A stretch of DNA of 64,000 bases from assembly GCF_048403405.1 (NCBI RefSeq), contig NZ_CP183129.1. One strand, written 5' to 3'. Position numbers and translations under genes: made by a program. This stretch comes from Escherichia coli (lineage in GTDB: Bacteria > Pseudomonadota > Gammaproteobacteria > Enterobacterales > Enterobacteriaceae). The notes beneath the pieces are model-generated. The model had not been told where the DNA came from and ran no database searches. It saw only the letters and a program-made list of their open reading frames with translations. Each line of letters begins with the position of its first letter. Position 1 is the stretch's first letter. Below, piece by piece: positions 13,413-29,403 of this stretch.

Positions 13413-13428
13413 GCTGGATATCTATCCA
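13413..13428 (+). promoter_or_regulatory. LexA box of ruvAB
   Basis: CTGG-atatctat-CCAG, ~50 bp upstream of ruvA. Confidence 0.75.
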
Positions 13429-13480
13429 GCATTTTTTTATCATACAGCATTATCTTTGATTCATTACGCAGGAGCGTCAT

Positions 13481-14092
13481 GTGATAGGCAGACTCAGAGG
13501 CATCATCATTGAAAAACAACCCCCGCTGGTGTTAATTGAAGTGGGCGGCGTAGGCTATGAAGTGCATATGCCGATGACCTGTTTTTATGAACTCCCTGAA
13601 GCGGGTCAGGAAGCGATCGTTTTCACCCACTTTGTGGTGCGTGAAGACGCGCAACTGCTGTACGGTTTTAACAATAAACAAGAGCGCACGTTGTTCAAAG
13701 AGTTGATCAAAACCAACGGCGTCGGCCCGAAGTTGGCGCTGGCGATCCTCTCCGGAATGTCAGCGCAGCAGTTCGTTAATGCCGTTGAGCGTGAAGAAGT
13801 GGGGGCACTAGTGAAACTGCCGGGTATTGGCAAAAAAACCGCCGAACGCTTGATTGTTGAAATGAAAGACCGATTTAAAGGTTTGCATGGCGATCTCTTT
13901 ACGCCAGCCGCCGACCTGGTACTCACGTCTCCTGCCAGCCCGGCGACCGACGATGCTGAACAGGAAGCGGTTGCTGCGCTGGTGGCGCTGGGCTATAAAC
14001 CACAAGAAGCAAGCCGCATGGTGAGCAAAATCGCTCGCCCTGACGCCAGCAGTGAAACATTAATTCGCGAAGCCCTACGCGCCGCGTTATGA
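13481..14092 (+). CDS. ruvA: Holliday junction helicase subunit RuvA
   Basis: 203 aa; GTG start; [15 protein letters not shown]. Confidence 0.95.
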
Positions 14093-14100
14093 GGTAAAGG

Positions 14101-15111
14101 ATGATTGAAGCAGACCGTCTGATTTCTGCCGGTACCACTTTGCCGGAAGATGTGGCAGATCGCGCCATTCGCCCTAAATTACTGGAAGAGTATGTTGGTC
14201 AGCCGCAGGTTCGTTCGCAGATGGAGATTTTCATCAAAGCAGCGAAACTGCGCGGCGATGCCCTCGATCATCTGTTGATTTTTGGTCCTCCGGGGTTGGG
14301 TAAAACTACGCTTGCTAACATTGTCGCCAATGAAATGGGTGTTAATTTACGTACGACTTCTGGTCCGGTGCTGGAAAAGGCGGGCGATCTGGCAGCGATG
14401 CTCACTAACCTTGAACCGCATGACGTGCTGTTTATTGATGAGATCCACCGTCTTTCACCAGTGGTGGAAGAGGTGTTGTATCCGGCAATGGAAGATTACC
14501 AACTGGATATCATGATTGGTGAAGGTCCGGCGGCACGCTCCATTAAAATTGATTTGCCGCCGTTTACACTGATTGGCGCAACCACGCGCGCAGGTTCGCT
14601 GACATCACCGTTGCGCGACCGTTTTGGTATTGTGCAACGTCTAGAGTTTTATCAGGTGCCGGATCTGCAATATATCGTCAGTCGCAGCGCACGCTTTATG
14701 GGGCTTGAGATGAGTGATGACGGCGCGCTGGAAGTTGCTCGTCGCGCTCGCGGTACGCCGCGCATTGCTAACCGTCTGCTGCGTCGAGTGCGTGATTTCG
14801 CCGAAGTGAAGCACGATGGCACCATCTCGGCTGATATCGCTGCTCAGGCGCTGGATATGCTGAATGTCGATGCCGAAGGTTTCGATTATATGGACCGCAA
14901 ATTGTTGCTGGCGGTAATCGATAAGTTCTTTGGTGGGCCGGTAGGTCTGGATAACCTGGCGGCTGCCATTGGCGAAGAACGTGAAACCATTGAGGATGTG
15001 CTGGAACCTTATTTGATTCAGCAAGGCTTTTTGCAGCGTACACCGCGCGGGCGTATGGCGACAGTGCGGGCGTGGAACCACTTCGGCATCACGCCGCCAG
15101 AAATGCCGTAA
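14101..15111 (+). CDS. ruvB: Holliday junction helicase subunit RuvB
   Basis: 336 aa; Walker [10 protein letters not shown]. Confidence 0.95.
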
Positions 15112-15250
15112 GTCGGATCGGTCGCTCGCGGTGCATCCGACACTGGCAGTGTTGCCTGATGCGCCGCTATTCGCGTCTTATCAGGCATATACCAGAGATA
15201 GCGAACCATAGGTCGGATAAGGCGCTCGCGCCGCATCCGACAAATGTGTT
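15112..15250. repeat. REP/BIME cluster (three REP-like palindromic units)
   Basis: GTCGGAT..ATCCGAC and GCCTGAT..ATCAGGC palindromes between ruvB and znuB. Confidence 0.6.
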
Positions 15251-15260
15251 CAGCGATAGA

Positions 15261-16046
15261 TTAGCTGGCCTGCTTTTTCATCATACTGATAATAAATAAC
15301 AGTGCCGCACATAGCACCACCGACGGACCTGCAGGTGTATCATAAAATGCGGAAAAGGTTAAACCGCCAGTCACTGCCACCATCCCCACCAAAACAGCGA
15401 TACCAGCCATCTGTTCCGGCGTGCGGGCAAAGCGACGTGCAGTAGCAGCAGGAATAATCAGCAACGAAGTAATAATCAACGCGCCGACAAATTTCATCGC
15501 TACACCAATCGTCAATGCCGTCACCAGCATCAACAACAATTTCACGCGCTGTAATTTCACACCATCAACAAACGCCAGATCCGGGCTAATCGTCATCGAC
15601 AGCAAATTGCGCCATTGCCAGAACAAAATCGCCACCACGATGACCACGCCAATTGCAATAGAGATGAGATCTTCTGGCGTCACTGCCAGCAAATCACCGA
15701 ACAGGTAAGCCATCAAATCAACACGAATATTAGACATCAGACTAACGACCACCAGGCCCAGCGACAGGGCACTGTGCGCCATAATCCCTAATAACGTGTC
15801 GATCGCCAGCTGTGGACGCTTCTCCAGCCATACCAGACCGCCCGCCAGCAGCAGCGTAACGGCAATCACCGCATAGAATGGATTCACGTCCAGCAACAAA
15901 CCAAACGCGACGCCAAGTAATGAGGCATGAGCCAGCGTATCACCGAAATAAGACATACGACGCCAGACCACAAACGAACCCAGCGGACCCGCGGCACAGG
16001 CGAGCATGATCCCGGCTAACCAACCGGGAAATAATAATTCAATCAT
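15261..16046 (-). CDS. znuB: Zinc ABC transporter permease
   Basis: 261 aa hydrophobic; overlaps znuC stop. Confidence 0.9.
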
Positions 16047-16798
16047 GAGCGATCATTTCCCCGACGCAAAACAATTCGTCCCTGTAAATCGTGACGATGA
16101 TTATGATGATGGCGATAGATACCCAGTTGTTCAGCACCACGAGGACCAAACATAGAAATAAACTCCGGATGCAGGGAAACAACTTCCGGTGTACCGGAAC
16201 AACAAATGTGGTGATTCAGGCAAAGCACTTCATCGGTTTTTGCCATTACCAGATGCAGATCGTGAGAGACCATTAAAACGCCACAATCCAGTTCGCGACG
16301 CAACTGGTCAATAAGGTCATATAACGCCACCTGACCATTCACATCCACGCCCTGAGTGGGTTCATCCAGCACTAATAATTGCGGTCGATTTAACAATGCT
16401 CGCGCTAACAATACACGCTGTGTTTCGCCCCCCGAGAGCTTTTGCATCGGTGCGTTAATCAGATGCCCGGCCTGGACACGTTTCAGTGCAGGCAAAATAT
16501 CTTCTTTATGTGTGCCAGGGCGTAAGCGTAAAAAACGGTTTACGGTCAGTGGCAACGTGGTGTCGAGATACAGCTTCTGCGGTACATAGCCGATGCGCAG
16601 TTTTCCGTTGCGCTTGATAACCCCTTCATCGGGTGTTACCAGCCCGAGCACTACCCGTACCAGTGTCGACTTACCTGCGCCATTTGGCCCAAGTAAAGTC
16701 AAAATTTTTCCAGGTTTAAGTTCCAGCGACACATCAGAGAGGACGCGGCGTTGGCCAAAAGAAACCGAGACATTTTCCAGGGAAACCAGACTTGTCAT
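16043..16798 (-). CDS. znuC: Zinc ABC transporter ATPase
   Basis: 251 aa; Walker [10 protein letters not shown], signature LSGGETQR. Confidence 0.9.
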
Positions 16799-28056: not shown

Positions 28057-28060
28057 AAGT

Positions 28061-28090
28061 CAAAATGCCCGATCCTCGATCGGGCATTTT
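28061..28090. terminator. Bidirectional terminator between convergent eda and purT
   Basis: ATGCCCGATC-N3-GATCGGGCAT flanked by A-run and T-run. Confidence 0.65.
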
Positions 28091-28110
28091 GGTAGCGTTT
28101 TTCGCCGGGG

Positions 28111-29289
28111 TTAAGCTTGTACTTTTATCTGTGCTGCGGCGTGCTTTGCGCGATCAATCGCTTCATCAACACTCTCTGCAGTAGCCAGTGCCACCCCCAG
28201 ACGACGGCTGCCATCAATTTCCGGCTTACCAAATAAACGAATCTGCAAACCTGCGCCTACGGCATTCTGCACATTATCAAACGTGACATTCTCACTGGTC
28301 AGTTGTGGCAGGATAACGGCAGAAGCTGCAGGACCATACTGACGGATCCCGCCAACCGGAAGTCCGAGAAAGGCTCGCACATGCAGGGCAAACTCCGAGA
28401 GATCCTGAGAAATTAACGTCACCATCCCGGTATCATGTGGGCGAGGGGAGACCTCACTGAAAATCACCTCATCACCACAGACAAACAGCTCGACACCAAA
28501 CAGACCATAACCGCCCAGTGCCAGCACCACTTTACGGGCAATCTCCTGCGCACGTTCAAGGGCAAGCGGGCTCATTTGTTGTGGTTGCCAGGATTCACGA
28601 TAGTCGCCATTTTCCTGGCGATGACCTACCGGTGCACAGAAATGGACTCCATCCACCGCGCTGACGGTTAGCAGGGTAATTTCGAAGTCAAACTTAACGA
28701 CGCCTTCAACAATTACGCGGCCCGCTCCGGCGCGACCGCCTTGCTGAGCGTACTCCCATGCTTGAGCAAGTTGCTCTGCAGAACGAATAAACGTCTGCCC
28801 TTTACCGGAAGAGCTCATCACCGGTTTAACAATGCAGGGATAGCCGATGTCAGCAACCGCCTCGCGGAAAAGGCTTTCGCTATCGGCAAAACGATAAGTG
28901 GAAGTGGGCAGCTGCAGCTCTTCTGCCGCCAGGCGACGGATACCCTCGCGATTCATCGTTAATTTCGTTGCGCGAGCGCAGGGGACAACATTCAGCCCTT
29001 CCTCTTCAAGTTGGATCAGCATATCGGTGGCAATAGCTTCGATCTCCGGCACGATATAATGTGGTTTTTCCAGTTCAACCACACGGCGTAATGCATCACC
29101 ATCAAGCATATTAATGACATGGGAGCGATGCGCGACATGCATGGCTGGCGCGTCGGCATAGCGATCGACGGCAATCACCTCTACGCCGAGACGCTGACAC
29201 TCGATTGCCACTTCTTTACCCAGTTCACCGGAGCCTAATAACATCACGCGAGTTGCTGCCGGACGCAGCGCAGTGCCTAATAACGTCAT
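28111..29289 (-). CDS. purT: Formate-dependent GAR transformylase
   Basis: 392 aa; ATP-grasp. Confidence 0.95.
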
Positions 29290-29326
29290 AACGAATATCC
29301 CCTGATTAATTCCGCGCGCAGTATAA

Positions 29327-29342
29327 ACGAAAACGTTTGCGT
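29327..29342. promoter_or_regulatory. PurR box ahead of purT
   Basis: Near-palindrome ACGAAAACGTTTGCGT. Confidence 0.55.
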
Positions 29343-29387
29343 GTGTCTTTATTGTTGATGTTGATTTCCCAACCGAGAAGAAATATA

Positions 29388-29403
29388 CTGTATAAAATCA
29401 CAG
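29388..29403 (+). promoter_or_regulatory. LexA box of yebG
   Basis: CTGT-ataaaatc-ACAG ~20 bp upstream of yebG. Confidence 0.75.

Follow-up and report, generated by a model that had tools for sequence, protein, structure and literature searches.

LexA operators of the window

The 64-kb stretch of Escherichia coli DNA that was analysed here (contig NZ_CP183129.1; hereafter the window) opens with the right end of a lambdoid prophage that is inserted in yecE, ends at its right attachment site (attR) and has a gene for a DinI-like protein as its outermost accessory gene. The host DNA that follows includes the ruvA-ruvB operon and yebG. An initial annotation of this sequence had placed LexA boxes before ruvA, before yebG and before the prophage dinI-like gene, and all three places were found to hold boxes, with heterology index (HI) values of 7.04-9.19, lower values denoting better sites. 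The count of at least three LexA-controlled units in 64 kb was also borne out, as there are three units with four operators (Table 1). Two of the proposed positions were correct only in part. The ruvA site, given as 13413-13428, is real but was set one base too far left, its core being CTGGATATCTATCCAG at 13414-13429, and the span 7720-7763 does mark a LexA site upstream of the dinI-like gene but holds two boxes, not one. These four sites are very probably the operators of three ordinary units of the E. coli SOS regulon.

The exact core CTGT-N8-ACAG, searched for over the whole window, occurs only three times (7720-7735, 7748-7763 and 29388-29403), and the ruvA core departs from it at two positions. 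When one mismatch was allowed, 27 matches were obtained where 19 were expected, which gave no discrimination, and an HI matrix was therefore used in place of this loose core. The matrix was recovered by a linear fit, with an error of 2e-5, to 252 (sequence, HI) pairs in Table S1 of PSOSP, which gives the HI of 368 candidate E. coli K-12 boxes as well as thresholds (HIc1 13.2 and HIc2 14.8; PMC12527982). The recovered matrix is a palindromic penalty matrix. At the invariant CTG/CAG positions the penalty was set at ln(38.5/0.5), approximately 4.3, with which the dinG entry of PSOSP Table S3 agrees within rounding.

A LexA matrix scan had been suggested as the check on the initial annotation; run over the window, it returned exactly four sites below the binding threshold of 13.2, and these are the four claimed sites, all of them well under it. 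As a null model, the window was simulated 500 times with a first-order Markov process; at HI <=9.5 these simulations gave 0.026 sites on average and 1 at most, compared with the four observed; at HI <=13.2 the simulated mean was 0.44, again compared with four. Besides exceeding chance as a group, each of the four has the form of a LexA operator, that is, a 20-bp palindrome resembling TACTG(TA)5CAGTA with an HI below approximately 13, and each overlaps or abuts a core promoter recognised by its consensus match.

Relaxing the limit to HI <=14.8 gave seven sites, including the four real ones, where 1.5 were expected by chance. The weaker sites at 43470-43489 (HI ~13.3, within yebT), 30469-30488 (HI ~14.1, at the start and first codons of yebE), 55483-55502 (HI ~14.5, within rlmA) and 40956-40975 (HI 15.0, within rsmF) were rejected as operators because their CTG/CAG is broken or they are intragenic, and because their number is at the level of chance.

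Table 1. Positions of the LexA operators, the promoters and genes that they adjoin, and neighbouring features of the window (strand in brackets)
Feature	Position	Sequence or elements	Score or basis	Remarks
ruvAB LexA operator	13412-13431	CGCTGGATATCTATCCAGCA	HI 9.19	20-mer
yebG LexA operator	29386-29405	TACTGTATAAAATCACAGTT	HI 7.04	20-mer
Prophage LexA box 1	7718-7737	CACTGTGTTTGTATACAGTA	HI 7.54	20-mer; exact CTGT-N8-ACAG core
Prophage LexA box 2	7746-7765	AACTGTATGGATAAACAGTG	HI 7.20	20-mer; exact CTGT-N8-ACAG core
ruvA promoter-like site	13415-13443 (+)	-35 TGGATA, 17-nt spacer, -10 TATCAT	Consensus scan 9/12	
yebG promoter-like site	29361-29389 (+)	-35 TTGATT, 17-nt spacer, -10 TATACT	Consensus scan 9/12	
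dinI-like sigma-70-like promoter	7740-7769 (-)	-35 TTGACA (7769-7764), 18-nt spacer, -10 AAAAAT (7745-7740)	Consensus scan 10/12	
ruvA-ruvB operon	13481-15111 (+)		RefSeq of collinear locus; reading frame checked by eye	Unit under the ruvAB operator
yebG	29423-29713 (+)		Pfam YebG PF07130, 4.2e-34; RefSeq of collinear locus	
dinI-like gene	7456-7704 (-)	82 aa	Open reading frame	Extreme right end of prophage; accessory gene
yebF	29780-30136			Downstream of yebG
yebE	30463-31122			Downstream of yebG
yobI	13277-13342 (+)			Small gene
Class I S-adenosylmethionine-dependent methyltransferase	6346-7014 (-)		phrog_2132, unknown function	
Prophage right end	1 to ~7985			Lambdoid; inserted in yecE
yecE remnant	7952-8062	36 codons		N-terminal
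attR core	~7965-7985		Annotated duplication of Stx2_12E129_yecE	

The two host operators

The ruvAB operator ends 49 bp upstream of the GTG start codon of ruvA (13481) and covers the -35 element and part of the spacer of the promoter-like site; no second SOS box scoring below HI 17 was detected at ruvA. Its 20-mer is identical to the K-12 box of PSOSP Table S1, is listed among the experimentally verified LexA binders in Table S3 of the same work (PMC12527982), and is unchanged in the loci L001 and L002. The yebG operator ends 17 bp upstream of the ATG (29423) and overlaps the -10 element and the start site; this 20-mer is likewise identical to the K-12 box in Table S1, and the box is identical in loci L002 and L010. 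The review PMC6590174 lists both ruvA and yebG as LexA-regulated genes whose SOS box is known. In K-12 the 20-mers, the neighbouring genes and the distances to the start codons are all the same as here, and over the window the present strain differs from K-12 only by the prophage, insertion sequence (IS) elements and small indels elsewhere. The K-12 SOS sites of ruvAB and yebG were reportedly compiled by Lewis et al. in 1994 and by Fernandez de Henestrosa et al. in 2000. The expectation, voiced in the initial annotation, that the host sites would be found here is thus met by two textbook operators, the canonical K-12 sites.

In Salmonella, the distance between the box and yebG is likewise 17 bp; nalidixic acid induces the gene 41-fold, and read-through extends the induction to yebF and yebE (PMC8072944). 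By analogy, yebF and yebE of the window may also be co-induced with yebG through read-through.

The ruvA operator region (13413-13440) additionally forms a perfect 7-bp GC-rich hairpin followed by T7, which was flagged as terminator-like. Folded as RNA, the hairpin reaches -10.6 kcal/mol (z = -4), and it lies 71 nt past the stop codon of yobI. These properties would suit an alternative in which at least one of the four sites arose as a palindrome by chance or has some other function, and in particular one in which the ruvA palindrome is mainly the intrinsic terminator of yobI. We regard this alternative as extremely improbable. Chance is excluded by the simulations described above, and the same 20-mer that forms the hairpin is a verified LexA binder and overlaps the -35 element of ruvA; moreover, the roles of terminator and operator are not mutually exclusive. 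The ruvA site is accordingly best read as a LexA operator, and one that may double as the yobI terminator.

The prophage dinI-like gene and its tandem boxes

As the dinI-like gene is on the minus strand, boxes 1 and 2 lie upstream of it, their 20-mers 13 bp and 41 bp from the ATG, with 28 bp between the box centres. Read along the minus strand, the elements follow one another as TTGACA, CTGTTTATCCATACAG, TT, AAAAAT, GATA, CTGTATACAAACACAG, TG, a Shine-Dalgarno sequence and the ATG, from which it follows that box 2 fills the 18-nt spacer between the -35 and -10 elements. Box 1 starts 2 nt past the -10 element and covers the likely transcription start. Two further features of this segment were observed: the boxes and their flanks (7711-7772) make up a 26-nt imperfect inverted repeat around the -10 element (CCCTCTACACTG... 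vs ...CAGTGTCAAGGG), and box 1 shares sequence with a promoter-like site of the plus strand (TCTACA-16-TATCAT, 7714-7741) that is directed towards attR.

The gene product belongs to the DinI family. It matches the Pfam DinI profile PF06183 (1.1e-19; 70.9 bits, with a cutoff of 24.2) over its whole length (1-63 of 63), matches phrog_189, 'RecA filament binding protein DinI' (5.7e-31), and aligns end to end with E. coli DinI (PDB 1GHH; residues 1-81, E 3.7e-13), with the acidic C-terminal helix conserved. The corresponding gene of a near-identical locus is named 'DinI-like family protein' in RefSeq. Judged by this similarity, the protein is expected to be a RecA-filament binder that modulates the SOS response and coprotease activity.

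A close relative of the unit is found in the Stx1 phage VT1-Sakai, whose DNA is 92% identical to that of the window over 326 bp and which has the same order of -35 TTGACA, LexA-like box, -10 element, second LexA box and ATG, at the end of the prophage beside the attachment (att) site. In its record, AP000400, 'LexA protein, putative SOS box' is annotated at the position of box 1, before the dinI homologue H0001, and 'putative promoter of H0001 and H0002 genes' is annotated across the position of box 2; the same promoter is annotated in mEp460. However, only the gene-proximal box is annotated in VT1-Sakai, the second one lying within the annotated promoter and having an HI of 11.4, as opposed to 7.2 in the window. 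The two prophages also differ in that VT1-Sakai integrates at yehV rather than yecE, and in that a ykgJ-like gene, instead of the methyltransferase gene, follows dinI.

The Salmonella prophages Gifsy-1, -2 and -3 each possess a dinI homologue that stands behind a LexA box, is LexA-controlled and is induced 14- to 23-fold by nalidixic acid (PMC8072944, PMC3121763). The Gifsy homologue stands first in a LexA-controlled operon that includes an antirepressor (dinI-gfoA/gftA-irsA; PMC3121763). The arrangement of a prophage DinI homologue directly behind a LexA box near the ATG is shared, at a distance of 19 bp in Gifsy and 13 bp here. In contrast, the Gifsy locus has one box, lies close to the replication genes in the early region, and has an antirepressor downstream that triggers induction, whereas the window has two boxes at the far right end next to attR and no antirepressor could be detected.

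These comparisons bear on an alternative in which the prophage boxes would constitute a phage induction switch, that is, a LexA-repressed antirepressor operon such as those of Gifsy, 186 (Tum) and N15 (AntC). Of the phrog_189 profile, the DinI-like protein covers only the latter half (71-149 of 151), as suits a family in which longer, Tum-like fusions also occur. However, neither inspection of the minus-strand open reading frames downstream of the dinI-like gene nor a PHROG search of them revealed a Gifsy-type antirepressor: all of these frames are antisense to a fragment of a tail-fibre assembly gene, and one of them, of 67 aa, has no PHROG match. Membership of an antirepressor operon of the GfoA/GftA, Tum or AntC kind was therefore not found. 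In addition, the Gifsy locus is near replication genes, unlike the dinI-like gene at the extreme right end by attR, and the first real gene to follow on that strand, the methyltransferase gene, is 440 bp away and has its own promoter-like site (7070-7043). A very small or novel antirepressor after the dinI-like gene is just conceivable; as a whole, we consider an induction switch very unlikely. Given the VT1-Sakai annotation and the LexA-regulated Gifsy homologues, the prophage unit is instead an SOS unit of an already known kind. The suggestion in the initial annotation that the prophage box ties cargo expression to the SOS signal fits this annotation and these homologues, and by this analogy such a tie would be expected. 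The only addition is that the promoter spacer is itself a second strong LexA box; it is missing from the annotation of the reference phage records, to which it could be added.

Multi-box SOS promoters are found at lexA and recN. In Salmonella, the two boxes of chromosomal dinI lie 19 and 42 bp away from its ATG (PMC8072944), nearly the geometry of the window, where the distances are 13 and 41 bp, and as in the window they flank the core promoter. The distal Salmonella box is very weak (HI 17.6), whereas both boxes of the window are strong (7.2 and 7.5).

The 361-bp region of this module has matches in 107 phage records, for the most part those of Stx1- and Stx2-converting phages but also mEp460, cdtI and others. 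Among 5426 complete E. coli genomes, 1789 carry the module, in up to seven copies per genome. Between phages with different att/int types, the similarity does not extend beyond query position 330-331, which lies just upstream of the -35 element. We aligned the promoters of eight sequences, namely the window and seven phage records. In this alignment the TTGA of the -35 element and the -10 block do not vary, and the CTG/CAG arms of the two boxes vary little or not at all. Seven of the eight sequences retain the tandem boxes, across diverged phages with differing integration sites; six of the seven phages have an HI of 5.2-9.9 at box 1 and of 4.9-11.4 at box 2. Different genes adjoin dinI in two of the phages: in JLK-2012 (1-950) the type III effector gene espV is directly downstream on the same strand, and in Stx2_12E129_yecE the effector gene nleC adjoins on the opposite strand.

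Several points weigh against reading the four sites as functional operators of three SOS units. In JLK-2012 (L007) both boxes are degraded, the best HI being approximately 13.5 at the position of box 2, which means that LexA control is not universal in the family of dinI-like modules. The promoters are predicted, from consensus matches only, and the -10 element of the dinI-like gene (AAAAAT) is weak. The CTG/CAG penalty in the HI matrix is an assumed value, which touches only marginal sites and not the four strong ones. Finally, a literature search found no paper in which induction of an E. coli prophage dinI-like gene had been measured.

From established SOS biology it follows that, in an undamaged cell, LexA dimers on the 20-bp palindromes over the core promoters would block RNA polymerase, at the -35 element of ruvAB, at the -10 element and start site of yebG, and, for the dinI-like gene, at the -35/-10 spacer (box 2) and the start site (box 1). 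DNA damage would then lead to RecA filaments, to LexA self-cleavage and to the switching on of all three units, after which the DinI-like product would bind RecA filaments and modulate the SOS response. For this prophage copy, repression and induction are what we infer from its boxes and its relatives. The lower HI at yebG and at the prophage gene suggests tighter repression than at ruvAB, and the two flanking boxes may give cooperative, and hence tighter, control of the dinI-like gene. The prophage unit itself is a widespread accessory module of the right end of lambdoid and Stx-type prophages, and it arrived here with the integration into yecE.

The proximity of the three units does not point to functional clustering. 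K-12 has approximately 36 distinct promoter-region sites at HI <=13.2, which corresponds to approximately 0.5 expected per 64 kb, and the Poisson probability of at least two host sites in 64 kb is approximately 0.09, which is not significant. Functional clustering of SOS units was rejected on this probability and because the third unit is prophage-borne; since that unit was brought by the prophage, and given the gene order, the proximity of the three is coincidental. The reading of LexA boxes from raw sequence was accurate and is otherwise of little significance. What it adds to the description of this strain is that a prophage DinI homologue extends its SOS regulon, a trait shared by a third of the complete E. 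coli genomes. Prophage dinI-like copies should be counted in models of SOS dynamics for strains with several prophages.

Neighbouring genes and other features of the window

Between the dinI-like promoter and the attR core, at 7788-7849, there are four exact copies of TGGGGCA and one TGGGACA, all in direct orientation. The TGGGGCA motif also occurs upstream of the dinI promoters of VT1-Sakai, Stx2_12E129_yecE, JLK-2012 and P-EibC, and was not found upstream of the dinI promoter in mEp460 or PhiR12_2. These repeats are probably arm-type binding sites of the integrase, in the arm beside the attR core. As the tandem operator is only approximately 20 bp from these putative arm-type repeats, it could influence the excision complex at attR. 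That LexA occupancy, or SOS-induced transcription of the dinI-like gene, shapes the assembly of this complex is highly unlikely in our estimation; if it were true, prophage excision or its timing would be tied directly to LexA cleavage. We rate no higher the related idea that the prophage DinI copies, of which a genome may have up to seven, together damp RecA activity and thereby fix the threshold at which co-resident prophages are induced.

On the other side of the dinI-like gene, the methyltransferase gene has a copy of the 3' part of a tail-fibre assembly gene on each flank (6173-7341), which gives it the look of an accessory gene brought in by recombination. No intrinsic terminator is predicted between the dinI-like gene and the methyltransferase gene, so that read-through from the former is possible, and with it SOS-dependent expression of this cargo gene, as far as the sequence indicates. 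A strong Rfam match to IS009 RNA (RF02111, 225 bits) was found at 6050-6248 (+), within the 3' end of the tail-fibre assembly gene.

The prophage genes in the window are, in order, those for tail tip J, Lom, the side tail fibre, the tail-fibre assembly proteins, the methyltransferase and the DinI-like protein. Stx2 phages also integrate at yecE. Of the 5426 complete E. coli genomes, only nine have the exact prophage-to-host junction, over at least 80% of positions 6500-9500 of the window. The host part of the window is collinear with strain MS 69-1 and several other strains, at 100% identity, and the gene map was taken from the RefSeq annotation of collinear loci (for ruvA-ruvB, from L001, shifted by +124 bp). 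After the prophage come yecD, aspS, nudB, yebC, ruvC, yebB, yobI, ruvA, ruvB, znuBCA, mepM, lpxM, an IS200 element, pykA, hexR, zwf, edd, eda, purT, yebG, yebF and yebE, and the map continues to sdaA.

Strains vary by approximately 118-124 bp at the aspS-nudB junction (~10700-10830). The two genes overlap in strain ECO_1_S and are apart in TUM14771 (locus L002), and the +124 offset of the window relative to ECO_1_S indicates that it has the separated form.

Two elements of the IS200/IS605 family are present. IS200C lies between lpxM and pykA (20345-20936) and includes a match to the Rfam family STnc490 (20813-20936), and a tnpA/tnpB pair of ISEc46, placed by collinearity with MS 69-1, lies between yebE and ptrB (~31286-32937). 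Two expected RNA elements were also recognised, the overlapping antisense pair of small RNAs SraC/RyeA and SdsR/RyeB at 38689-38833 and a leader element, a cspA-type thermoregulator match that spans yobF-cspE, at 54322-54782.

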